In this document: positions 52,692 through 64,000 of the stretch, piece by piece
Numbering within the stretch: position 1 is the first letter of the stretch
Layout of the letters: every line of letters starts with the position of its first letter
Source of the DNA: Rikenellaceae bacterium
GTDB lineage: Bacteria; Bacteroidota; Bacteroidia; Bacteroidales; Rikenellaceae
NCBI GenBank assembly: GCA_015059715.1
Contig: SUZV01000003.1
Span: 33,544 to 97,543, forward strand
Direction of reading: 5' to 3'
DNA: 64,000 nucleotides
Program-made: the position numbers and the translations under genes
The notes under the pieces: generated by a model
Seen by the model: only the letters and a program-made list of their open reading frames with translations
Databases searched by the model: none
Told to the model about the DNA's origin: nothing

Positions 52692-53057
52692 CTAAAATCT
52701 TATCTCAAGGTGTTCAATCTCGCCAAGCTGCTCTATCGTAAAGCTATCGGCATCGGCCATCTGAAACACCGCATCGAAGCTACTTACAGCACTATAGTCG
52801 TGGCTAAGGCCCTCGACGTAGGGCTCAACACAACCATCGCCCCAATCGACAGAGCCCTGAACACCCTCACCACCCCACGTCGGGGAGTTAAGGTGAGCCA
52901 TACTATGCCTAATGGTTAGATTTAGCATCTCTACCTCCGGTTGCTCATCGGGCGTAACTCCTGGGTCTGGCTCGGGAGTAGGCTCAACGACTCGATCAGC
53001 ACGCTTACATCCTGCCAGGACAAGCAGCACAGCTGCCATATATAAAAATCTCTTCAT
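52692..53057 (-). CDS. Small lipoprotein (121 aa) with a Pro/Glu-rich linker and a PKD-like DWGDG...HDY motif
   Basis: Lipobox LVLAGC. Starts 3 nt after the C10 peptidase stop. Contains VDWGDGCVEPYVEGLSHDY. Confidence 0.6.
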   Translation of the reverse strand: MKRFLYMAAVLLVLAGCKRADRVVEPTPEPDPGVTPDEQPEVEMLNLTIRHSMAHLNSPTWGGEGVQGSVDWGDGCVEPYVEGLSHDYSAVSSFDAVFQMADADSFTIEQLGEIEHLEIRF

Positions 53058-53060
53058 AGC

Positions 53061-54800
53061 TTACAAATCTTTAATCTTAAACGTATAGCTCCTACTCTCC
53101 GAGCCATCCTCTCGCTCAAGATATATCGTATAGATATCACCGCGACTGAGGAGGCTCGTATCGATAGTCATATAACGAGGCATCGAGATAACACCACCCT
53201 CCACCTTACTACCAAGTATATAGAGCTCAACACGCACATCCCTATCGTGCGAAATGGTTATCACCCCAGTGCTCTTATCGAACCTCAGCGACGTAGTATC
53301 GCCAATCGTAGGCTGCTTCAAAAGTATCTCCCACTGAGCTTTGTCGGCATAGGGCAGCATCGCAAACCACCTATCGCTCTCACTGCTACGATAGTATACC
53401 CTGAGCCTATCACCAGCAACAATCTCATCCTCAACCGTAGCCACGACACTCGCCACCGAGGTTGCGTAGCCAGCGTCGATAGAGAAGCCGACAGCCTCCG
53501 AGGCCCACGACTTAAACTCACCCCTAATATCACACACGCCCACGCGCACATCACCATCGAAGCTAACAACGGCGGCGTTGACCACAGAGATGGCATCAAT
53601 CGTAAATGGTTCGCGCTCGTTAAACTCTCTTGCCGACGTTGCCATGCCTGGAGCATTCACATAGAGCCAATTATCAACCTCGCCATCACGCATAGGGTGC
53701 ATGCCTAAAAACGCCCAGTGCTCAGTGTCGAAGAGGTATGCATCGAGGATAAGACCATCGATTCTAAAGAAGCCGTTGCTCACACCTCCCCAGCCCCAGT
53801 TGACGTGGAAGTAGTCGTTATCATCGACACCATCGATGACAAAGGCGTGACCCTCCTGATCAGCCGTATAGCCACTATATAGTATAGGCCTATTGGCCTC
53901 TATCTCGCTACGCAGCAGCTCATGCCAGCTCTCTGTCGAATAGTAGTTGCGTATAACATAGTGACACGAGGGGCTGTAGCCATAGTTACTGTACATCGCC
54001 ACGCCATCGGGCAGCGCAGCAGTAGACTCAGCAGCATAGTCCGCCTTAAAGGAGTGGCCAAGGTCAGCCATAAGCATCGCGACAGCCTCGCCCTCGGCCT
54101 GGCTATACTCACCCTCGACATACTCATAGAGCATATTATCCCAGTCGTAGCTATGGTTTAAATCGCGCGCAGGGACCTCAATACCCTTAGTATAGGTGGT
54201 AAAGGGTTCAGCTACACCCTGCGCCCTTACGGGCCAACGATTATAGTGCATAATGATAGCCATGGCTGTCTGCGTACACCCTGTGAGCGACTGCGCATCG
54301 CCATCCATGGGGCAATAGATGTTGTATGGCGCAAACTGACTCCAGCGAGCCGTATTTAGCAATGTAGCATTGACAGGCTGATACGCCTCACTCCACAGCT
54401 CTACAGTAGCCTTGTCGGCCGCGATATCATTATCTCGCACATAGCCTACAACACTATCAACATAGCGTAGCCACGCTGCAAAGTTCTCGGGTAACATATC
54501 GCAGGATGCAACCTTGTCGCTTGTCGAGTATGCCAAGATGGGTGCTACCCTATCGTCGCCAGCAACAATGACAAAGCCGCGACCCGACTCTGGCGTGATA
54601 ACGTAGAACGTGGGCTCTACGCCGTGGCGCGTAGCTATCAACGCGCTACTATCCCATGCCACAACAACATCCTCACCTCGCGTAGCCTGGCCCAACACAC
54701 CGCGTGCAATATCTATAGCGACACACGACGGCACCTCCTTAGCTACCACACCCCCTATCGACAAGATAGCGGCAACAATTATTAGATATAGTCTCCTCAT
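53061..54800 (-). CDS. C10-family (streptopain/PrtT/interpain-like) cysteine peptidase with an N-terminal Spi-type propeptide and a T9SS C-terminal sorting domain
   Basis: Propeptide PTFYVITPESGRGFVIVAGDDRVAPILAYS. Catalytic Cys in LTGCTQTAMAIIMHYNRWP and His in GHAFVIDG...HVNWGWGG. The last ~75 aa (VRVELYILGSKVEGGV...DTSLLSRGDIYTIYLE...YTFKIKDL) fit the Por secretion tail pattern. Confidence 0.85.
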   Translation of the reverse strand: MRRLYLIIVAAILSIGGVVAKEVPSCVAIDIARGVLGQATRGEDVVVAWDSSALIATRHGVEPTFYVITPESGRGFVIVAGDDRVAPILAYSTSDKVASCDMLPENFAAWLRYVDSVVGYVRDNDIAADKATVELWSEAYQPVNATLLNTARWSQFAPYNIYCPMDGDAQSLTGCTQTAMAIIMHYNRWPVRAQGVAEPFTTYTKGIEVPARDLNHSYDWDNMLYEYVEGEYSQAEGEAVAMLMADLGHSFKADYAAESTAALPDGVAMYSNYGYSPSCHYVIRNYYSTESWHELLRSEIEANRPILYSGYTADQEGHAFVIDGVDDNDYFHVNWGWGGVSNGFFRIDGLILDAYLFDTEHWAFLGMHPMRDGEVDNWLYVNAPGMATSAREFNEREPFTIDAISVVNAAVVSFDGDVRVGVCDIRGEFKSWASEAVGFSIDAGYATSVASVVATVEDEIVAGDRLRVYYRSSESDRWFAMLPYADKAQWEILLKQPTIGDTTSLRFDKSTGVITISHDRDVRVELYILGSKVEGGVISMPRYMTIDTSLLSRGDIYTIYLEREDGSESRSYTFKIKDL

Positions 54801-55094
54801 AACTTAAGAAATCCTCTACGGATAAGTAATAGGTTATAGATTGTCGAGGTGCTCTGCGCAGGTTGCTCGACCAACTTATGGCACCCTCTTAAAAAAGGGG
54901 TAACTCCACTAAGGAATTACCCCATAATAGGTCTACTTAAGAGGCTAAAGAAATTCTACTTACAGAGTCGTTATAAGGATTTTGAACCATCTGTGTTAAC
55001 CCTAAAAGGGAGCAGAGCCGCAACTACGCAACCAATAAGACACAGAGGATGGCAAAATATCCCTTAGCGACTTATTAAAGAGCCTCTTAACCCT

Positions 55095-55556
55095 CTACAA
55101 GAGGGGCACAACCTCCAACGAGCGAGTAGTGGTAGCCTCAGCCTTCACCTCCTCTGGAATCTCGCACTTGGTATATACGCTTGCGACGCTTGTATCCTCC
55201 TGGCTATACATCGTGAGAGTATCGCCCTCGACAGCGAACTTATAACCCGATGCCCATATCGAGCCATCGCTATAAAGACCTGTAACAATGCTGCCACTTA
55301 CGTTATAGCTACCCTCGAAGAGCTCGTAAAAGAGTGTCCACGTCTGCTGGTATATCTGGAAAGTAGCGTCATCGTTAAAGGCTACATATACACTGAACTC
55401 TGGAGTCTCCTCATTCCACGATGTAAGTACCCACTCACCTACCAATTCTGAACTTGAAACACCGCCACCAGGCTTGTTCTGGTTGTTCTCCTTGTCGCAA
55501 CCTACGAGCATTGCTGCAAGCAATAACATCATAGATAGTATCTTGAAACTTTTCAT
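55095..55556 (-). CDS. Lipocalin-like small lipoprotein (153 aa), partner A
   Basis: Lipobox MLVGC followed by acidic/polar DKENN. Beta-rich body GEWVLTSWN...YQQTWTLFYELFEGSYNV. Paralogue of 58288..58767. Confidence 0.6.
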   Translation of the reverse strand: MKSFKILSMMLLLAAMLVGCDKENNQNKPGGGVSSSELVGEWVLTSWNEETPEFSVYVAFNDDATFQIYQQTWTLFYELFEGSYNVSGSIVTGLYSDGSIWASGYKFAVEGDTLTMYSQEDTSVASVYTKCEIPEEVKAEATTTRSLEVVPLL

Positions 55557-55589
55557 ATCGTTACTCAATTTTTGCGTTATCAAATTATA

Positions 55590-57587
55590 TTACAACCAGC
55601 CACCAGGAGTTATAGGAGCACCTGTGCCATCGTCGACCTTAACACCTGGACGTACCACCAAGGCGAACTCCTGCTCGGCCTCCATACCGCCAGTAATCTG
55701 TCCGCCACCTACCGTATTGCCGCCAGCGACATATTTTAGCTTGACGAGTGCCGAGCCAGGCTTTGTACACGTAAGAAGGAGCTTGCTACCCATAAAGCGG
55801 CAGTCTGTGATGCCGAGCTTCTCCTTCACCTCCTCTGATATTTCAGACTCAAGCATCTTAACCTGAACATTACCATCGCCAATGTAGTTGCTGATGTCGA
55901 GGATAACCTGCTCGCCGAGAGGCACTGGAATACATGTAGTACCACGCACGGCCATAAGCACACGATAAGCATCGATAAGACCAGTACCCATCTTATTTTT
56001 GTATGAGGTAAGGTTCATAGTACCACCCGTTTCGAAGTGTGCCTTTGAACCATCGAACTCAAGAGCCGATACCGAAGATACGATGATATCCTTAAGCTCG
56101 GGGAGTGTAAGCACGATGCCATTGTCCGCAGCATAAGAGATAGCCAAGGCTGCGATGCCCGACACATGTGGGCAAGCCATAGATGTACCCTGCATAAAGG
56201 CATACTTATCGCCAGGCATTGTAGATGCCACACAACCACTCTCTACTGACGAACCACTACGACGGAAGTACTCACCACCAGGAGCCGAGACGTTACAGCC
56301 ACGGTCGTAGCAAGTATAGTATGTAGGACATCCATCAGGACCTATAGACGATACAGCGATAAGCTTGTTATAGGCTGCTGGATAACCCGCTACAGCCTTA
56401 CCATCGTTACCCGCAGCGAAGATGATGATACCACCCTCGAGATTTGGATGGTTCTTAGTGGTCATAAAGTACTGGAATGCCGTCCACTCTACGCCTGTTG
56501 AGCCACTCTCGAACATATTGTCGTTCGAGATAGCACCTGCCTCGAAACCCCAAGAGTTCTGCAATACGCAAGCACCACGATCTGCGGCATACTCTACCGC
56601 TGCTGCTGTAGCATTTACACCTGCTGCGTTACCGCCCGAGATAATCTGGCATGAGAAGATACGCACACCATCGCCATTGCCCGAACCACCTGCTACGCCA
56701 GCAACACCGAAACCATTATTTGTAACAGCGGCTACAGTACCTGCCACGTGAGTACCGTGACCCTGGTCGCCATTGCGTGTCCACGTTACGCGGCCACTAT
56801 CTACGAAGTTGTAGCCATATACATCATCTGTATAGCCGTTACCATCATCATCAACACCCTCGGTACCATTCTTCTCGGCCTCGTTGACGTGCATATTAGG
56901 CTGCAAATCCTTGTGTGTGTAGCACACACCCTCGTCAACTATCGCTACTACAACATCGGGGCGACCTGTCGTAAGTTCCCACGCTGCAAAGAGGTTGATA
57001 TCGGCACCAGCCTTAGCATTTGGGAAGTCTACAGTGCCATCGTTGTTGTAGTGCCACTGTCGGGGCAGCAGCGTATCATCGAAAGGCACGCCCTCGGCAC
57101 GTGTTGTAGCTATGGTGCTCATATCTATCTCTACGCTCTCTACCTTAGGTTTATCAATCATTGTAGAGAACTGCACACGCTCTACGTCTGCAATCTTTGC
57201 AAGGCTACGAGCGGCAGCGTCGAGGTCTGCATCCTTCGAGAAGGATACTGTATACCAACGGTGCATGTTAAGCTCGCGCTTACGCTCGGCGTTAACCTTG
57301 AGGTTAAATACGGGCTTAAGCTCGTTTGCTCCGATAGATGCCACAGCCTCGTCAAGGGCTATAATGCCCGAGCGAGTAGAGACCTGAGCACTCTCAAGGT
57401 TAGAAGCAGCCTCCTCGCTGACATAGATTATAAGCTCACCCCCGATGGCATTTGCCGAGGTGTTGACGAGCTTTGCGGCTGTAGCCACCTCCTCTGCCTG
57501 ACCATTAGGCTGATCTACAGGGTCTGTGACACACGCTGCGGCCACCATACCCACCAATGCAAGAAGTAAAATTTTGGTTCTATTCAT
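55590..57587 (-). CDS. S8-family subtilisin-like serine peptidase lipoprotein (665 aa), copy A
   Basis: Lipobox VAAAC. Catalytic motifs VAIVDEGV (Asp), HGTHVAGTVAA (His) and GTSMACPHVSG (Ser). Confidence 0.9.
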   Translation of the reverse strand: MNRTKILLLALVGMVAAACVTDPVDQPNGQAEEVATAAKLVNTSANAIGGELIIYVSEEAASNLESAQVSTRSGIIALDEAVASIGANELKPVFNLKVNAERKRELNMHRWYTVSFSKDADLDAAARSLAKIADVERVQFSTMIDKPKVESVEIDMSTIATTRAEGVPFDDTLLPRQWHYNNDGTVDFPNAKAGADINLFAAWELTTGRPDVVVAIVDEGVCYTHKDLQPNMHVNEAEKNGTEGVDDDGNGYTDDVYGYNFVDSGRVTWTRNGDQGHGTHVAGTVAAVTNNGFGVAGVAGGSGNGDGVRIFSCQIISGGNAAGVNATAAAVEYAADRGACVLQNSWGFEAGAISNDNMFESGSTGVEWTAFQYFMTTKNHPNLEGGIIIFAAGNDGKAVAGYPAAYNKLIAVSSIGPDGCPTYYTCYDRGCNVSAPGGEYFRRSGSSVESGCVASTMPGDKYAFMQGTSMACPHVSGIAALAISYAADNGIVLTLPELKDIIVSSVSALEFDGSKAHFETGGTMNLTSYKNKMGTGLIDAYRVLMAVRGTTCIPVPLGEQVILDISNYIGDGNVQVKMLESEISEEVKEKLGITDCRFMGSKLLLTCTKPGSALVKLKYVAGGNTVGGGQITGGMEAEQEFALVVRPGVKVDDGTGAPITPGGWL

Positions 57588-57649
57588 AGTTGTTTTAAGT
57601 TAAATGTTTCAGTTCTGGAGGCATAGCCTAATTACACTCTCTCAAGATG

Positions 57650-57657
57650 CAAAGATA
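57650..57657 (-). promoter_or_regulatory. Putative -7 promoter box for S8 copy A
   Basis: Minus-strand TATCTTTGCATCTTGA. The same TTTGCATCTTGA extension is found upstream of S8 copy B. Confidence 0.5.
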
Positions 57658-57889
57658 TAAAAAAATCGTTAATTGAAAGCATTTGGGGAATAATTTGCTG
57701 TGTAATTAGCAATTGTATTACTCTGTCATGTAATTTTCTAAACGCGAGTAAGTGATGACAGGTAGCGAGATTGAAAAATTTAGGGAGATTAGAGACTTGG
57801 GAAGGGGGAAGGAGAAATGCTCCCCTTAAAAGCTGCTTATTGAATAACCAACACGACCAAATTTTTGATTAGAAGGCTGTAGATGCGGC

Positions 57890-57985
57890 CTTATCGTCCT
57901 ATTGTCTTATCGTCCTATCGTCCTATTGTCCTATTGTCTTATCGTCCTATTGTCTTATTGTCCTATTGTCTTATTGTCCTATTGT
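57890..57985. repeat. Tandem array of 12 octamers CYTATYGT
   Basis: Units read in order: CTTATCGT CCTATTGT CTTATCGT CCTATCGT CCTATTGT CCTATTGT CTTATCGT CCTATTGT CTTATTGT CCTATTGT CTTATTGT CCTATTGT. A T-tract follows, then a degenerate inverted copy (57997-58033). Confidence 0.9.
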
Positions 57986-58050
57986 CTTTATTTTTTAGGA
58001 CATTATGACGTTAAGACCATAAGACATTAAGAGGTCGAGTATCATAACAA

Positions 58051-58157
58051 CGAATACCCTTAAACTACCCCTTAGCTCGCTACAAGCGAGCGAACTACCC
58101 TTTAGCAAGCTCTGCTTGCGCACTACCCTTTCCGCTTTAGCGGTGACCGCAAGGTCA
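58051..58157. repeat. Periodic (28-30 bp) ACTACCCYTT motif, each copy followed by a different short GC hairpin
   Basis: ACTACCCCTTAG at 58064, ACTACCCTTTAG at 58094, ACTACCCTTTCC at 58122, plus ATACCCTTAA at 58054. Hairpins are GCTCGC/GCGAGC, GCAAGC/GCTTGC, CCGC/GCGG and TGACC/GGTCA. Confidence 0.8.
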
Positions 58158-58183
58158 TCCACATTTGTTGTCAAAAGGGGTTA

Positions 58184-58269
58184 GATGTGACCTCGATAAA
58201 GAGATTGCCTCGAATGGGACATACTCGGTGTATTTCCCATTCGAGGCAATGATTGAGAGGTCGCAGATG
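58184..58269. repeat. REP-like compound palindromic element, copy B
   Basis: Inner 16-bp stem ATTGCCTCGAATGGGA / TCCCATTCGAGGCAAT. Shares the flanks GATAAAGA and AGAGGTCGCAGATG with copy A at 40872-40974. Lies 19 nt past the stop of the lipocalin-like gene. Confidence 0.75.
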
Positions 58270-58287
58270 CTGCCTTATAATCGAAAA

Positions 58288-58767
58288 TTATAGGTAGGGG
58301 GTAACATCTACAACTCCACGTGTCGCCGTAGCCTCCTCCTTAACATCCTCGGGAATGGTACATGCCTCATATACCGAGGTGATAGGATTAGCATCCTTGC
58401 TTACAAGAGTCAGCGTGTTGCCATCTGCTGAGACACCTCCTGTATACTCGCACTTCCACGCGCCAGCATCGAAGTAGCTACCCGACAAGGTGCCACCATC
58501 AACGTTATACTCGCCCTCGTAGAACTGATAATCGAGGGTATACATCTGCTGATAGAGGGCAAACAAACCTGTGCTGAAGCTGATGTATACGTTAAACTCG
58601 GCAGGCGCATCATTTACCGACACGAGCTTCCACTCCTTCTCTATATTCTCGAATGAGCCCGACTGGTCCACAGGCTTCTTATCGTTGTTATCATCACCCC
58701 CTTTATCGCAAGCTACAGCTGCCAATAGTACAACGAAAGCCAATGATAATGTCTTAAAGATCTTCAT
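58288..58767 (-). CDS. Lipocalin-like small lipoprotein (159 aa), partner B
   Basis: Lipobox AAVAC followed by DKGGDDNND. Contains YQQMYTLDYQFYEGEYNV and CTIPEDVKEEATATR. Confidence 0.6.
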   Translation of the reverse strand: MKIFKTLSLAFVVLLAAVACDKGGDDNNDKKPVDQSGSFENIEKEWKLVSVNDAPAEFNVYISFSTGLFALYQQMYTLDYQFYEGEYNVDGGTLSGSYFDAGAWKCEYTGGVSADGNTLTLVSKDANPITSVYEACTIPEDVKEEATATRGVVDVTPYL

Positions 58768-58798
58768 ATTTATATACTTTTTATCGTTCTACAACTTA

Positions 58799-60865
58799 TT
58801 ACAACCACGCTCCATTGTCGTTATTATCACGAGCCACGATGACAACATCCTTCTCCATAACCTTACCGCCTGGAGTGCCAACCTCGCCCTTCACGCCAGC
58901 AACATACTTAACGGTGATTGTACCTACACCAGCATTCTTGCACGTTAGATATATCTTATTGCTAAAGTAGTCAACCTTATCGATGCCCAAGCGGTCCTTG
59001 GTCTCGTCAGAGATTGAGTACTCAGCGTAGCTTGTCACCTTGATATTACCATCACCGATGAGTGAGCTAACGTTAATCTCGAGCTCCTGACCCACGATAG
59101 CAGGCACACAGATAGCACCACGCACGCTCTGGATGGCCATCAAGGCATCAATCTTACCTGTACCCATATTGCCCTTATAAGGGTCAAGCGACATGGTACC
59201 GCTCATATCTGCCCTATAGTAATCGTAGATATACTTGATACCTGTAAGCTTATCGTCGATATTACGTACCGATGATGTGATGATATCGTAGAGCTGGGTA
59301 TTAGTAAGCGTAATGCCATTCTCTACGGCATACGAGAGCACAAGAGCCGCAATACCCGACACATGAGGACATGCCATTGACGTACCCTGCATATAACCAT
59401 AGTCCGAACCATAAGGCTCATTGGTTATGGTATTTATAGTCTCCGAAGGCACTGTCGAGAGCACACAGCCATCATACTTATATTGACGGTTCTCAATTGC
59501 AAGGTCACCACCTGGGGCAGCAACATTACAGCCAAACTTATAGTTTGTATAAGTTGTTGGCAGACCATCGGGAGCATAGGCAGTAACGGCGATAAACTCA
59601 TTGTAGGCACCAGGGTAGTCAGCCGCTGCCTTAGCATCGTTACCTGCAGCGAAGATAGCCACGTTGCCATGCATTGCCGAGCAACCACTCTTGCTCACAA
59701 AGTAACGCAAACCAGCAAGCTCAACACCATAGTAAGACTGGTACTCGCCGTCCGACATTGTCTGACCCTCGCGGAGTGGATAGCCCCACGAGTTCTGTAT
59801 GATAGATGCACCCATATCTGCGGCATACTCAAAGCCCTTAGCATTTTGCGCCATAGAGCTATTGTTCTGACCGTCAAATATCTGAATAGACATAATACGC
59901 ACACCATCATTATTACCCGAGCCACCTGCTACACCTGCTACACCTACGCCATTGTTATTTACAGCAGCTACAGTACCTGCAACGTGTGTACCATGACCTG
60001 TATCACCATCCCAGAACGTACCATCATCGGTTTCAATAAACTTACCCTTGTCCCAAGAGATGTTACCATTTTCGGCAACACAGTTATAGCCGTGGATGTC
60101 ATCAACAATGCCATTGCCATCGTCGTCGACACCCTCAGCACCGCCCATCTCGGCTTCGTTTACCCACATATTGGCCGCAAGGTCAGGGTGGTTATACTTA
60201 ACACCCTCGTCCATAACAGCAACGACTACCTGACGACTACCTGTGGTATGTTTCCAGGCTGCATAGGCGTTGATATCCTCACCCTTAACCGAGTACTGGT
60301 AGATAGACTTCAAGCCAGGGTTGTCGTAGTGCCACTGCAACTCAAGCATAGGGTCATTAAAGGGGAGCTCCTCCGAGTTACGTGTTGTAAATTTCTCTGC
60401 TACAGGGTGTGCAGCCGAAACCTGTGGTCGCTGTACGAGAGTAGAGTACTGTACGCGCTTAACCTCGCTCAGTTCGGCAAACTTCTCGGCTACGGCTTCG
60501 AGCTTAGCCTCCTCGTCGAACTTAACGACATACCAGCGGTGAAGGCCCTTAGCACGCTTCTCGTCACCATTGATATTAAGGTTGAAGACTGGAGCGATAG
60601 AGGTTGCATCATACTCTACAGCTACAGCATCGAGAGCATCGTTACCCGAGCGTGTTGCGGTCTCTGCCGTAGCCCACAAATCTGCGGTCTGCTCATCAAC
60701 ATAGAGGATAAGCTCACCTGCTACAGCATTCTCAGAGGTGTTGATAATCTTCTTAGCCACACCACCCTGCTGCGATACAACGCCCTCATCCATTACTGGA
60801 TCGGCAACACAAGCTGCCGCGAGAAGTGCCACTAAGGCAAACAATAAAATTCTACCCTTGTTCAT
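58799..60865 (-). CDS. S8-family subtilisin-like serine peptidase lipoprotein (688 aa), copy B
   Basis: Lipobox LAAAC at ATG 60865. Catalytic motifs VAVMDEGV, HGTHVAGTVAA and GTSMACPHVSG. Confidence 0.9.
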   Translation of the reverse strand: MNKGRILLFALVALLAAACVADPVMDEGVVSQQGGVAKKIINTSENAVAGELILYVDEQTADLWATAETATRSGNDALDAVAVEYDATSIAPVFNLNINGDEKRAKGLHRWYVVKFDEEAKLEAVAEKFAELSEVKRVQYSTLVQRPQVSAAHPVAEKFTTRNSEELPFNDPMLELQWHYDNPGLKSIYQYSVKGEDINAYAAWKHTTGSRQVVVAVMDEGVKYNHPDLAANMWVNEAEMGGAEGVDDDGNGIVDDIHGYNCVAENGNISWDKGKFIETDDGTFWDGDTGHGTHVAGTVAAVNNNGVGVAGVAGGSGNNDGVRIMSIQIFDGQNNSSMAQNAKGFEYAADMGASIIQNSWGYPLREGQTMSDGEYQSYYGVELAGLRYFVSKSGCSAMHGNVAIFAAGNDAKAAADYPGAYNEFIAVTAYAPDGLPTTYTNYKFGCNVAAPGGDLAIENRQYKYDGCVLSTVPSETINTITNEPYGSDYGYMQGTSMACPHVSGIAALVLSYAVENGITLTNTQLYDIITSSVRNIDDKLTGIKYIYDYYRADMSGTMSLDPYKGNMGTGKIDALMAIQSVRGAICVPAIVGQELEINVSSLIGDGNIKVTSYAEYSISDETKDRLGIDKVDYFSNKIYLTCKNAGVGTITVKYVAGVKGEVGTPGGKVMEKDVVIVARDNNDNGAWL

Positions 60866-60906
60866 AGTTATTAAAAAATTAAAAATAATCATACCACTTC
60901 AAGATG

Positions 60907-60914
60907 CAAATATA
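60907..60914 (-). promoter_or_regulatory. Putative -7 promoter box for S8 copy B
   Basis: Minus-strand TATATTTGCATCTTGA about 41 nt upstream of ATG 60865. Confidence 0.5.
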
Positions 60915-61023: not shown

Positions 61024-61048
61024 GCGGCCCACCCCAAGGGCAGGCCGC
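61024..61048 (-). terminator. Terminator after the 758-aa lipoprotein gene
   Basis: GCGGCC / GGCCGC stem followed on the minus strand by TTGTTTTGTG. Confidence 0.55.
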
Positions 61049-61073: not shown

Positions 61074-63350
61074 TTAGAAACCGAAAGTTGCGTTATTAAC
61101 GAGCACACGGTTAACTGGACCATTGTAAAGCTCAACGCGAACTGAAGCTACTGGAGCATCGTACTCAGCACCAAACTGAAGCTCTGCGCCAAGGCTCTTT
61201 GCAGATGCCCTGAATGCTGATGTTGTAGGCTCCTCTGTAGGCTCCTCTGTAGGCTCCTCAGCTGGCTCCTCAGTATACTCCAAAGTAGCATCTGGAGAGA
61301 AGTAGAAGTCATAACATACAAATGATTCATCCTCGAGCTTGAAGACACAGCTTGCGAAGTATGTCTCAAGACCAGTGAACTTATCATCAGTGTAAGAGAA
61401 TGTAAGGTCTGCTGGAGTCTCCAACTTAGCATCCGATGCAGCGAAGTAACCAAATGCCATGGTCTTAGCCTGGTCGTAGTAGAATGCATAGCTATTGAAG
61501 ATATAGTCCTCACGATCATTAACCTCCAAGCCATCGAATACAACGGTGTTAGTCTCAGCGTCAATTAAACCAAGGAACTGGAAGCCGTCAATCTCAACGA
61601 TAAGCTGACCTGCAGCAAGACCACCCATTAGGTTGAAGTCCAAGTCATACTCCTCGCTATCAACAGTCTCAGAGAGGTTGTATGAACCGAGTGCAAAGCC
61701 AGTTACATTAGGCAACTCCTTCTCTACGTATAATACCTGTGTATCACCATAGAGTGTCTGAACAGCTACGATAGCGCAAGATGTAGAACCTGAAGGCATG
61801 TTATATGGGCCCATAACTACTGAACCGTAGCCCTTCTCAGGATCATAACTCTTACGAATATTATCAAGAGCGCTCTTGAAGTCTTCGCCATAGCCAGCAA
61901 CAATCTGTGCATGAGTCATACCACTATTAGCAGCTACGTTAGCATCACCAATCCAAGCCTTGATAGATATAATCTCATGAGGATTACCAACGATACCAAG
62001 AGCTACAAAGTAAGCCTCTGGGAACTGCTCCTCATACTTATCATCACCAGTAACGTTAACTACTGAATCGTAGAACACCTTGATATCAGCCTTTGGAAGC
62101 TCACCGCCATCCTTGTGGAAGTAGAATGGATAAGTCAAAGCATCCTCAACCTTAGGCTCATCAGCATAAGGAACAGCTACGATAGTGTAGATACCTGAAG
62201 CGCCAAGGTCAAGCTTCCATGTAAGCTCGTCAGCAGAAGCCTCGAAGATAGTGATATCCTCGCTGCCAGCAACGATAGCCTCAATAGTATCAGCTGTATC
62301 TACAATATTACCCTCAAGAACAGTGAACTTGTATGACTCAACATCAGCACCTACTGCGAACTCGATAACAGCAGTAGTTGTGGTGTTGTCAGCCTCAGTA
62401 ACCATACCTGCATAAGCAGCAGAGATAGCGTAGTCCTTGATGTCGTAGCCAGGGAGTGCAAGAGCGAACAAACCTACCGTGTTAGCGTAGTTACCACGAC
62501 CATCTGGGATATGCCACATGATAGAGTTAGGTGTATTGAACCAGAATACGCCATTCTCGAACTTACCGTACATTGGTGTGTTCTCGTCAGCATATACCGT
62601 AGCAAGGAAGAAATCCTGTGGAGTACCACCCTGCTCAACAACGAGCTGGAAGCCAAGTGGACTTGAAGGAATCTCTACATTACCATTCTCGTCAACAACG
62701 AACTCAACGTAACCTGGGCCAGTGTAGGTCATATCTGAAGGTACACCACCGATGATGTAAGGACACATAGCCTGGCCATATGGATCAACCATACGATAAC
62801 GGTGTGGCTCAAGCTCGTGCTGAACAACCTCAACCTCGACCATTACGCCAGAAGGACCACCATACATTGGAGCGAGGAAGTCGTCACGATAGATACCCTT
62901 ACCCAAGCTAACCCAAGGCTCGGCTATACCTACTTTGAAGATGAACTGCGATGCACCATACTGTGAAGCCTGTGCCTGATCGAGCTGGATGTTCAAAGGA
63001 TACTTAACACCAGGAGCAAGATCCGAACCATTGAAAGTGATTACAAGCTCAGTCTCGGCCTGGCCTGCAGCAAACTTTACGCTGTTAGGTACTGTGAAGA
63101 AACCACATGACTCAACATCCTCAGAACGAAGGCTTATAGTAGCCTCTGCATCAACATTAAGACGTGCAACAGGAATAGCTACTGAGCTATCCTCGGCAGT
63201 AACTACAAGATCTGCAGTACTGGGGAAGTATACACCCTGGTTTGCATCCTTAGCTCCAGGTGTATAATCTGCATGCTCGTGTGTACACGATGCCAACGTG
63301 AAGACACCTACGACAGCAAGAAGCAGATATATAAAATTATACTTTTTCAT
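61074..63350 (-). CDS. Large surface lipoprotein (758 aa) downstream of SusD, in the position of SusE/F-like or surface-binding proteins; C-terminal (EEPT)n tract
   Basis: Lipobox TLASC at ATG 63350 (the TTG at 63359 is rejected). Multiple beta-sandwich-like modules. EEPAEEPTEEPTEEPT near the C-terminus. Confidence 0.65.
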   Translation of the reverse strand: MKKYNFIYLLLAVVGVFTLASCTHEHADYTPGAKDANQGVYFPSTADLVVTAEDSSVAIPVARLNVDAEATISLRSEDVESCGFFTVPNSVKFAAGQAETELVITFNGSDLAPGVKYPLNIQLDQAQASQYGASQFIFKVGIAEPWVSLGKGIYRDDFLAPMYGGPSGVMVEVEVVQHELEPHRYRMVDPYGQAMCPYIIGGVPSDMTYTGPGYVEFVVDENGNVEIPSSPLGFQLVVEQGGTPQDFFLATVYADENTPMYGKFENGVFWFNTPNSIMWHIPDGRGNYANTVGLFALALPGYDIKDYAISAAYAGMVTEADNTTTTAVIEFAVGADVESYKFTVLEGNIVDTADTIEAIVAGSEDITIFEASADELTWKLDLGASGIYTIVAVPYADEPKVEDALTYPFYFHKDGGELPKADIKVFYDSVVNVTGDDKYEEQFPEAYFVALGIVGNPHEIISIKAWIGDANVAANSGMTHAQIVAGYGEDFKSALDNIRKSYDPEKGYGSVVMGPYNMPSGSTSCAIVAVQTLYGDTQVLYVEKELPNVTGFALGSYNLSETVDSEEYDLDFNLMGGLAAGQLIVEIDGFQFLGLIDAETNTVVFDGLEVNDREDYIFNSYAFYYDQAKTMAFGYFAASDAKLETPADLTFSYTDDKFTGLETYFASCVFKLEDESFVCYDFYFSPDATLEYTEEPAEEPTEEPTEEPTTSAFRASAKSLGAELQFGAEYDAPVASVRVELYNGPVNRVLVNNATFGF
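61224..61271 (-). repeat. In-frame 12-bp tandem repeat (4 units) encoding EEP(A/T)
   Basis: TGTAGGCTCCTC x3 followed by AGCTGGCTCCTC on the plus strand. Confidence 0.8.
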
Positions 63351-63387
63351 ACTTTTCAATTTTTTCGTGTTTTGTTCCGACTAATTA

Positions 63388-64000
63388 CTACATATCCTGA
63401 ATAGCCATATAGATATCAGTTGGGTCAGGATTGTTCTTGTCAGCAGGAATACCCTGGTTTACCTGAGTCTCCGACTGAGGAACTGCTGGTGACCACCATG
63501 GCAAACGACCTGTAGACTTGAAACGTGCCTGAGGATCGTAGTTTACACTCTTAGTGCAGTCTACACCCATGTTAAGACGCTTCATATCGAACATAACGAG
63601 GCCCTCACCCCAGAACTCAATACCCTTCTGGAAGATAATCTCGTTGAGAACACCTGCCTCATCAGCAAATGGGCATACGTAGTTAGAGTCACGGTTAGCC
63701 ATGAACGCTACGAGCTTCTGCCATGCTGCATCAACACCCTGAGTGTGCAAGATTGCCTCCATCTCGATGAAGTACATCTCCTCGCAACGCATAACTGGGA
63801 TTGCAATAGCCGCAGCTGTCATAGCATCGTTACGGATACCCTGTGCAGGACGGAATTTGAAGAATGTATAAGGAGCAAACATATTGAAACCATCCTCATC
63901 ATAAGAGGTGTAAGGCATAAACTCAGCGTAAGTAGTCTCTGGACCGATAATAAGCTTCTTACGGAAGTCAGCATTACCAAGACGCTCGAAAGACTCTGAG
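63388..64000 (-). CDS. RagB/SusD-family outer-membrane nutrient-binding lipoprotein, C-terminal part (runs off the window)
   Basis: The frame is open to the window edge (SESFERLGNADFRKKLIIGPE...). SusD-type C-terminus with RCEEMYFIEMEA, FQKGIEFWGEGLVMFDMKRL and RLPWW. Confidence 0.85.
   Translation of the reverse strand, partial: SESFERLGNADFRKKLIIGPETTYAEFMPYTSYDEDGFNMFAPYTFFKFRPAQGIRNDAMTAAAIAIPVMRCEEMYFIEMEAILHTQGVDAAWQKLVAFMANRDSNYVCPFADEAGVLNEIIFQKGIEFWGEGLVMFDMKRLNMGVDCTKSVNYDPQARFKSTGRLPWWSPAVPQSETQVNQGIPADKNNPDPTDIYMAIQDM

Follow-up and report, generated by a model that had tools for sequence, protein, structure and literature searches.

Tandem subtilase modules with lipocalin-like partners in a SusC/SusD-linked locus of Rikenellaceae: a candidate family of cognate protease partners

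The lipoprotein subtilase PrtP of Treponema denticola belongs to the dentilisin complex PrtP–PrcA–PrcB, in which PrcB supports the protease in a stabilising rather than an inhibitory role. Potempins are beta-barrel inhibitors that reside in the outer membrane as lipoproteins and are co-transcribed with their peptidases (PMC9890683), and in Aeromonas the gene of the ORF2 protein directly follows that of a subtilase, whose catalytic site is entered by the C-terminal tail of ORF2 (PMC5638518). Here we report on a locus of a Rikenellaceae bacterium (GenBank assembly GCA_015059715.1, contig SUZV01000003.1, positions 33,544 to 97,543 of the forward strand; this whole stretch of 64,000 nucleotides is referred to as the window) in which the genes of a subtilase of family S8 and of a small lipocalin-like protein, both predicted lipoproteins, form a module that is present twice in tandem. 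We refer to the two modules as S8A with small A and S8B with small B. Strict pairing, co-duplication, a confidently predicted complex and a C-terminal tail that copies a junction motif of the protease together make it very likely that each small protein is a direct and cognate partner of its S8. The literature points to genetically linked protease partners as a kind that is already known and to the small family itself as undescribed. Our searches retrieved nothing relevant on subtilisin–lipocalin pairs of Alistipes or on the family PF13648, and in the literature covered neither an obligate pairing with S8 proteases inside SusC/SusD loci nor a junction-mimicking tail is described.

The two proteases are 46% identical from end to end (BLASTP, E-value 8e-175) and the two small proteins are 42% identical (E-value 7e-38). 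An original prediction, made by reading the sequence of the window, had proposed that the S8 proteins align over their full length and that the downstream proteins align as well, and the shared blocks that it quoted, including the terminal G-WL of the proteases, were all found, with the reading frames at the positions given there. The proportion of synonymous sites that differ (pS) between the window copies is 0.70–0.73 and hence saturated, so that a ratio of nonsynonymous to synonymous substitution rates (dN/dS) calculated between the two copies is uninformative. This saturation, together with the presence of orthologues of each copy in dozens of species, marks the duplication as ancient, not recent. 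Against four orthologous loci, dN/dS amounts to 0.12–0.24 for all four genes; purifying selection acts on both S8s and on both small genes.

The pairing extends well beyond the window. Related loci are present in 50 or more Alistipes/Rikenellaceae species genomes, and we surveyed 58 of these loci from metagenome assemblies and one-genome-per-species contigs, that is, from Alistipes/Rikenellaceae metagenome-assembled genomes mostly of ruminant hindgut origin. They harbour between one and three modules each, 117 in total, and in all 117 the small gene is located directly 3' of the S8 gene, with a median gap of 33 nt between the S8 stop and the small start. Four of the surveyed loci, and three further Alistipes loci that were reached via a divergent S8, possess a single module, and the pairing holds in the more distant single-module Alistipes loci as well. 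The usual order is SusC, SusD, a lipoprotein of 560–830 amino acids (aa), S8B with small B and S8A with small A, in most cases followed by a C10 peptidase and another small lipoprotein. Maximum-likelihood trees unite the 51 B-type S8s in a single clade (SH-aLRT support 100) and their 51 partners likewise (97/86), and this agreement between the S8 and small-protein trees indicates that one event, prior to the radiation of this clade, duplicated both genes as a unit. Seven loci (L036, L039, L043, L048, L049, L053 and L054) include a third and more divergent module ahead of B and A, whose small proteins end in …YFL and have longer N-terminal linkers rich in Pro and Glu. Two contigs (L057 and L058) bear a lipoprotein–S8–small locus of the Bacteroidota type although they are labelled Butyricicoccaceae (Firmicutes); they are probably mis-binned.

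The same box, TAnnTTTGCATCTTGA, precedes both modules. Within the 64 kb there are exactly two copies of the 12-mer TTTGCATCTTGA, at 57642-57653 and 60899-60910 on the minus strand, where 0.21 copies would be expected by chance, and each copy extends a TAnnTTTG box of the Bacteroidota type that lies 30–50 nt upstream of the S8 start. In 86 of 110 modules of the related loci the 120 nt ahead of the S8 start contain a TAnnTTTG box, compared to an expectation of 0.067 per 120 nt, and the extension of the box is kept across species and in both paralogues with the consensus TAtaTTTGCAtCTTGagAGa. This conservation supports a promoter-like box for each individual module. The claim that an identical extended -7 element stands before both modules is borne out in this sense, and together with the congruent trees it upholds the description of the duplicated unit as promoter, protease and small partner, which the original prediction had taken to be a functional couple; the co-occurrence across related genomes, single-module loci of other Alistipes included, agrees with that view.

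The S8s fall within a large subtilase family of the Bacteroidota and are ordinary representatives of it. Pfam recognises Peptidase_S8 (PF00082) in the two window proteins with 142.5 and 158.5 bits (cut-off 21.8) and, N-terminal to it, Peptidase_S8_N (PF16361) with 94.9 and 95.2 bits (cut-off 30.5), a domain that would correspond to a cleaved prodomain. Both copies, like every divergent module type, possess the motifs of the catalytic triad and of the oxyanion Asn (VDEGV/MDEGV, HGTHVAGT, AAGND and GTSMACPH); 15 S8s that apparently lacked the triad had been singled out by a too strict regular expression or were truncated open reading frames (ORFs), and D, H, N and S are kept in all of them. Subtilases in the PDB match the S8s by sequence (E-value 1e-31), and the catalytic domain resembles deseasin (fold match with a template modelling (TM) score of 0.86), SUB1 and mirolase. 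Lipobox-like motifs, found in 110 of the 117 S8s and in all 117 small proteins, predict that both partners are lipoproteins. The acidic residues behind the lipidated Cys had been read as a surface-export signal of Bacteroidota lipoproteins; such residues do occur in the window proteins (CDKEN, CDKGGDD, CVTDPVD and CVADPVMDE), but 23 of the 117 small proteins have no D or E at positions +2 to +7, which leaves the signal a weak pointer to a surface location and not a constant feature of the family. At the other end every surveyed S8 terminates in G-W-[L/M/F]; in the window these tails are encoded at 55593-55604 and 58802-58813 on the minus strand. Amongst 120 further S8 homologues, 113 end in GWL or GWF.

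The small proteins constitute, by sequence comparison, an unnamed family with a lipocalin-like fold and without a named or structurally solved relative. Lipocalin_4 (PF13648) matches them weakly, small A with 23.8 bits, slightly over the cut-off of 22.4, and small B with 18.6 bits, under it, and NCBIfam has no model that matches the small proteins or the 761-aa and 121-aa lipoproteins of the locus. The proposed lipocalin-like fold is supported by an AlphaFold2 (AF2) model of small B, which comprises eight strands and a helix at residues 140-148 with a predicted local distance difference test score (pLDDT) of 82 overall and above 90 in the barrel. The top Foldseek match of this model in the PDB is the lipocalin-like protein BACUNI_01346 (4qrl; E-value 7e-4, TM score 0.68 on the target), followed by BACEGG_01585 (5byp) and then by classical lipocalins; neither a potempin nor a staphostatin appears among the top 50 matches. 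A profile of the small family retrieves no meaningful match from the PDB sequences and none to potempins at E<=10. A search with small B yielded about 170 relatives, unnamed or annotated as ‘hypothetical’, with Alistipes as the named organisms, and the profile reached 772 clusters (50% identity) at E<=1e-3 amongst 1.84 billion representatives, most of them lipoproteins of 140–170 aa that end in a hydrophobic residue followed by L or F. Five members (P0251, P0255, P0268, P0330 and P0384) contain two or three tandem lipocalin-like domains, and two others (P0317 and P0388) carry the domain at the N-terminus of proteins of 740–1050 aa without recognised domains. Fusions of an S8 to a small protein were not found among the longer members of the family, whose extra parts are other or unrecognised domains.

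The fold invites a different interpretation, in which the barrel is a peptide carrier that binds products of proteolysis, for example those ending in a hydrophobic residue plus Leu or Phe, and passes them on to SusD/SusC, in parallel to the surface glycan-binding proteins of polysaccharide loci. Ligand-binding lipocalins are indeed among the closest structural matches, the locus is linked to SusC/SusD, and the partners themselves both end in a hydrophobic residue plus L or F and resemble such possible products. We nevertheless regard a carrier as improbable: the barrel, at ~90 residues, is small, and most of its invariant positions are aromatic and of the core type, a generic carrier requires neither a one-to-one co-duplication with each protease paralogue nor the confidently predicted direct complex described below, and the lipoprotein of 600–830 aa encoded upstream is a more natural candidate for a binding protein.

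The feature that links the small proteins to the proteases in sequence is a short motif. Between S8_N and the catalytic core the S8s include the segment x-T-R-[AS]-[ED]-[ED]-[LMV]-P-F-(D/N)-D, in which 78 of 107 S8s keep TR…PF, and the small proteins end in T-R-[AS]-x-E-V-V-P-F-L-COOH; in 90 of 112 tails exactly eight residues follow TR. The regular expression TR[AS].{3,5}P[FL] matches the S8 junction and the small-protein tail and nothing else in the 23,947 aa of window ORFs, and in the distant single-module loci the basic-small dipeptide R-[AS] is kept in both proteins. The S8 junction maps onto the mature N-terminus of deseasin (3vv3) and parallels the pattern AQSVPYG at the mature N-terminus of subtilisin BPN'; because of this alignment and this pattern TTR↓AEGVPF is the likely, sequence-predicted processing site of S8A. 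The resemblance could alternatively denote a dedicated substrate, with the S8 cutting its partner at TR↓[AS] in order to release an octapeptide signal of the form [AS]xEVVPFL or to switch the function of the partner. The tail shares its site with the S8 junction, the eight residues that follow TR are well conserved and mostly constant in number, and the tail is predicted to be flexible. However, the locus encodes no evident receptor or regulator for an octapeptide, and since the conservation of the tail mirrors the mature N-terminus of the S8, mimicry is the simpler account; we consider a dedicated substrate highly improbable.

Physical association of the two proteins was addressed by structure prediction. 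S8A and small A happen to share a reading frame across 55584-55592 (minus strand) and are separated by one TAA plus 11 sense codons, a circumstance that served purely as a modelling device. About one third of the related modules are likewise in frame, as predicted by chance, and there is no sign of programmed read-through. The AF2 query comprised residues 161-665 of S8A, the linker and small A as a read-through fusion, with an alignment of 39 paired read-through rows from related loci, 50 S8-only rows and 50 small-only rows. The model has a predicted TM score (pTM) of 0.87 and a mean pLDDT of 84.7, and pLDDT drops below 50 solely in residues 1-5, in the 42 residues of the linker and signal peptide and in the last 10 residues. 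According to our own arithmetic (d0 ~9 Å, 670 residues) an unplaced barrel of 111 residues would cap the pTM near 0.74, and a value of 0.87 consequently implies that the model places the barrel on the protease with confidence, within an expected error of ~4–5 Å relative to the core.

This bears on the notion that the small gene is a mere operon passenger that encodes an unrelated surface lipoprotein and that the two proteins do not interact directly. Lipoproteins of the Lipocalin_4 type are common in Bacteroidota. Of three remote representatives of the small family, two sit after an S8 ending in …WL and thereby extend the pairing. The third (L064, 3618-4124, 168 aa, Lipocalin_4 22.2 bits) adjoins a HisKA_3/GerE two-component system and SodB and has no S8 neighbour, from which it follows that the pairing is not universal across the wider family. 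Set against the unbroken pairing within the survey, the congruent trees, the S8 junction motif in the tail and the predicted complex, the passenger hypothesis is hardly credible.

The predicted complex is equally compatible with a non-inhibitory role, in which the small barrel is an anchoring or stabilising subunit that tethers the mature S8 at the outer membrane beside SusC/SusD, perhaps via the G-W-L tail of the protease, much as PrcB supports PrtP in dentilisin. In all S8s the lipobox is located ahead of S8_N, and because the lipid anchor thereby precedes the pro-like domain, maturation would free the enzyme unless a second lipoprotein held it. The invariable S8 tail is ordered in the fusion model (…PITPGGWL in S8A, pLDDT ~90), whereas that of small A is disordered, and S8A is weakly similar to the NCBIfam model of dentilisin PrtP (78 bits, cut-off 300). 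On the other hand, an anchoring subunit leaves unexplained why the tail of the small protein copies the processing site of the S8, and the removal of the prodomain, which creates the need for a tether, is itself something that we infer. We judge this role to be unlikely, although it is the foremost alternative.

We tentatively favour an explanation that puts the tail at its centre, namely that the small protein is a lipid-anchored and trans-acting pseudo-substrate inhibitor, or guard, of its cognate S8. Each module would supply a lipid-anchored pro-subtilase and its own lipid-anchored partner, co-transcribed from a gene ~33 nt further downstream, and the modules would represent the enzymatic arm of an uptake locus of the SusC/SusD type in which peptidases take the place of glycosidases and which would serve gut Alistipes in foraging for proteins and peptides. 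The lipocalin-like barrel would dock onto the mature protease, and its flexible C-terminal tail, as a copy of the processing site x-T-R↓[AS]-x-E-Φ-Φ-P-F, would be offered to the cleft of the active site in the manner of a pseudo-substrate. The small protein may hence operate as a second prodomain in trans that either silences the enzyme or shields the surface of its own cell, an effect that would last until the tail is displaced or cut. The idea of an inhibitor or chaperone had been voiced in the original prediction; the predicted complex and the likeness of the tail to the S8 processing site are in line with it, but the tail is not docked in the model.

Several observations weigh against such a mechanism. 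The S8s carry an N-terminal pro-like domain of their own, which makes the need for a second inhibitor less than obvious. The predicted cleavage at the S8 junction would occur after Arg, and the S1 pocket is presumably subtilisin-like, with Asp/Glu at the equivalent of position 156 and Gly at 166. In the fusion model, which was built for the cognate S8A–small A pair alone, the last 10 residues of small A including TR have a pLDDT of ~32 and occupy no site on the protease, and the modelled interface between barrel and S8 may be located at an exosite remote from the active site. Junctions and tails do not covary in a partner-specific manner (own versus shuffled pairs, p ~0.5), which makes their resemblance a feature at the level of the family. 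The small proteins have no similarity to potempins, staphostatins or ORF2, either in sequence or within the top 50 structural matches, and one remote member of the family, as described above, is not located beside an S8. The more far-reaching version of the idea, a new family of lipid-anchored pseudo-prodomains whose tail plugs the active site and provides a safety catch that times proteolysis in a SusC/SusD-coupled peptide utilisome, with a private partner for each paralogue, strikes us as conceivable though doubtful.

The coordinates of the features are listed in Table 1. Read from 5' to 3' along the minus strand, the genes are arranged as SusD-like gene, 761-aa lipoprotein, S8B, small B, spacer, S8A, small A, C10 peptidase and 121-aa lipoprotein; in homologous loci complete genes for SusC (Plug and CarboxypepD_reg domains) and SusD sit upstream. 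The ORF of small A is open already from a TTG at 55583, and that of S8B stays open to 60892, with MNK as the start in the orthologues. The C10 peptidase and the 121-aa lipoprotein (52692-54800, minus strand) represent a second couple of peptidase and small lipoprotein, which most related loci retain behind their S8 modules. The lipoprotein encoded upstream of the modules varies in length with the species, from 560 to 830 aa, and in the window a 12-nt tandem repeat (61224-61275, minus strand) encodes a (T/A)EEP repeat (…TEEPAEEPTEEPTEEPT…) near its C-terminus. The intermodule spacer contains ~12 tandem copies of an 8-nt unit with a 16-nt super-period (57890-57988); most related loci have a far shorter spacer, of about 40 bp to 1 kb, which suggests that the array was inserted or has expanded locally. 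Public sequencing runs that contain the stretch are DNA metagenomes of faecal or goat-gut origin.

Table 1. Features of the locus, with positions counted within the 64-kb window; every gene of the region is encoded on the minus strand.
Feature	Position	Strand	Remarks
S8A, predicted subtilase lipoprotein, 665 aa	55590-57587	-	Lipobox AAAC; D217/H277/N395/S469 motifs; C-terminus GGWL
Small A, predicted lipoprotein, 153 aa	55095-55556	-	Lipobox LVGC; lipocalin-like
S8B, predicted subtilase lipoprotein	58799-60865	-	Lipobox LAAAC; S8_N pro-like domain, catalytic domain, C-terminal beta domain; tail GAWL
Small B, predicted lipoprotein, 159 aa	58288-58767	-	Lipobox AVAC; eight-stranded lipocalin-like barrel, C-terminal helix and tail
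S8A predicted pro/mature junction	57081-57107	-	TTRAEGVPF
S8B predicted pro/mature junction	60359-60388	-	TTRNSEELPF
Small A C-terminal junction-mimic tail	55098-55133	-	TTTRSLEVVPLL
Small B C-terminal junction-mimic tail	58291-58326	-	ATRGVVDVTPYL
Promoter-like box A	57642-57657	-	TATCTTTGCATCTTGA; same box type, upstream of S8A
Promoter-like box B	60899-60914	-	TATATTTGCATCTTGA; Bacteroidota -7 type TAnnTTTG with conserved extension
Intermodule spacer, 700 bp	57588-58287	-	Hairpins or palindromes resembling repetitive extragenic palindromes; 8/16-nt tandem array
761-aa lipoprotein	61074-63359	-	Upstream of box B; matches no Pfam family
SusD-like gene, 3' part	63388-63999	-	Truncated by window end; PF07980 22.8 bits, cut-off 23.1
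C10 cysteine peptidase with I69 prodomain	53061-54800	-	Downstream of small A
121-aa lipoprotein	52692-53057	-	3 nt after C10 gene; no family
Terminator-like hairpin	61024-61048	-	11 bp, 9 GC, T-run; separates 761-aa lipoprotein gene from box B
Terminator-like hairpin	54897-54923	-	After small A, ahead of C10 gene

Alistipes are abundant protein-fermenting gut bacteria, and much less is understood about how Bacteroidota forage for proteins at the cell surface than about their foraging for glycans. The locus represents a conserved and compact candidate for a peptidase-based counterpart of the polysaccharide utilisation loci. Should the tail-mimic mechanism prove true, prodomains, potempins and ORF2 would be joined by a fourth architecture amongst the genetically linked regulators of bacterial proteases, one that would also provide a natural scaffold for highly specific inhibitors of subtilases; the mechanism is directly testable with two recombinant proteins.

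The parallels to known systems are instructive in both directions. Like the potempins that accompany the KLIKK peptidases of Tannerella forsythia, the small proteins belong to the Bacteroidota and are small barrels (~100–130 aa when mature), predicted to be lipoproteins of the outer membrane; each peptidase has its own partner, a subtilase included in the case of PotC and mirolase, and some potempins are eight-stranded up-and-down barrels. In contrast to this general likeness, the small proteins share neither sequence nor leading fold matches with potempins. Potempin genes are located upstream of peptidases that are secreted by the type IX secretion system, whereas the small genes lie downstream of lipoprotein S8 genes in a SusC/SusD locus. 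Potempins employ an internal reactive-centre loop, whereas the candidate inhibitory element, judged by its sequence, would be the C-terminal tail; and whereas potempins specifically inhibit the peptidase to which they are linked, the AF2 fusion implies binding only. Staphostatins and Bfi of Bacteroides fragilis are likewise small eight-stranded barrels encoded beside their target peptidase, and the analogy drawn to them at the outset holds at the functional level but not in sequence or amongst the top structural matches. Their targets are cysteine peptidases, and the C10 peptidase of the present locus is accompanied by a small lipoprotein of its own, distinct from the partners of the S8s. The lipocalin-like structures 4qrl and 5byp, which were determined by the Joint Center for Structural Genomics (JCSG), have no assigned function, are 12–14% identical to the small protein and are devoid of the signature of a C-terminal helix plus tail within the alignment of ~110 aa.

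With dentilisin the modules would have in common an outer-membrane lipoprotein subtilase that depends on a small lipoprotein partner from the same operon, but the phyla differ, the partners are unrelated in sequence and S8A scores far under the PrtP cut-off. The Aeromonas sobria pair of ASP and ORF2 (PDB 3wqb) corresponds in that a protein of ~150 aa is encoded immediately downstream of the subtilase. ORF2 binds ASP with its tail in the catalytic site as a temporary inhibitor, whereas the tail of small A is undocked in the AF2 model; ASP is devoid of a propeptide, whereas the S8s possess the N-terminal Peptidase_S8_N domain; and ORF2 is periplasmic, not lipidated and unrelated in sequence to the small lipoproteins. 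The logic that we propose is ultimately that of the I9-type prodomains of subtilases, a folded unit that packs onto the catalytic domain and a processing-site segment that is presented to the cleft. In this locus that logic would be realised by a separate, lipidated protein of lipocalin fold that acts in trans on an enzyme which keeps an N-terminal domain of its own.

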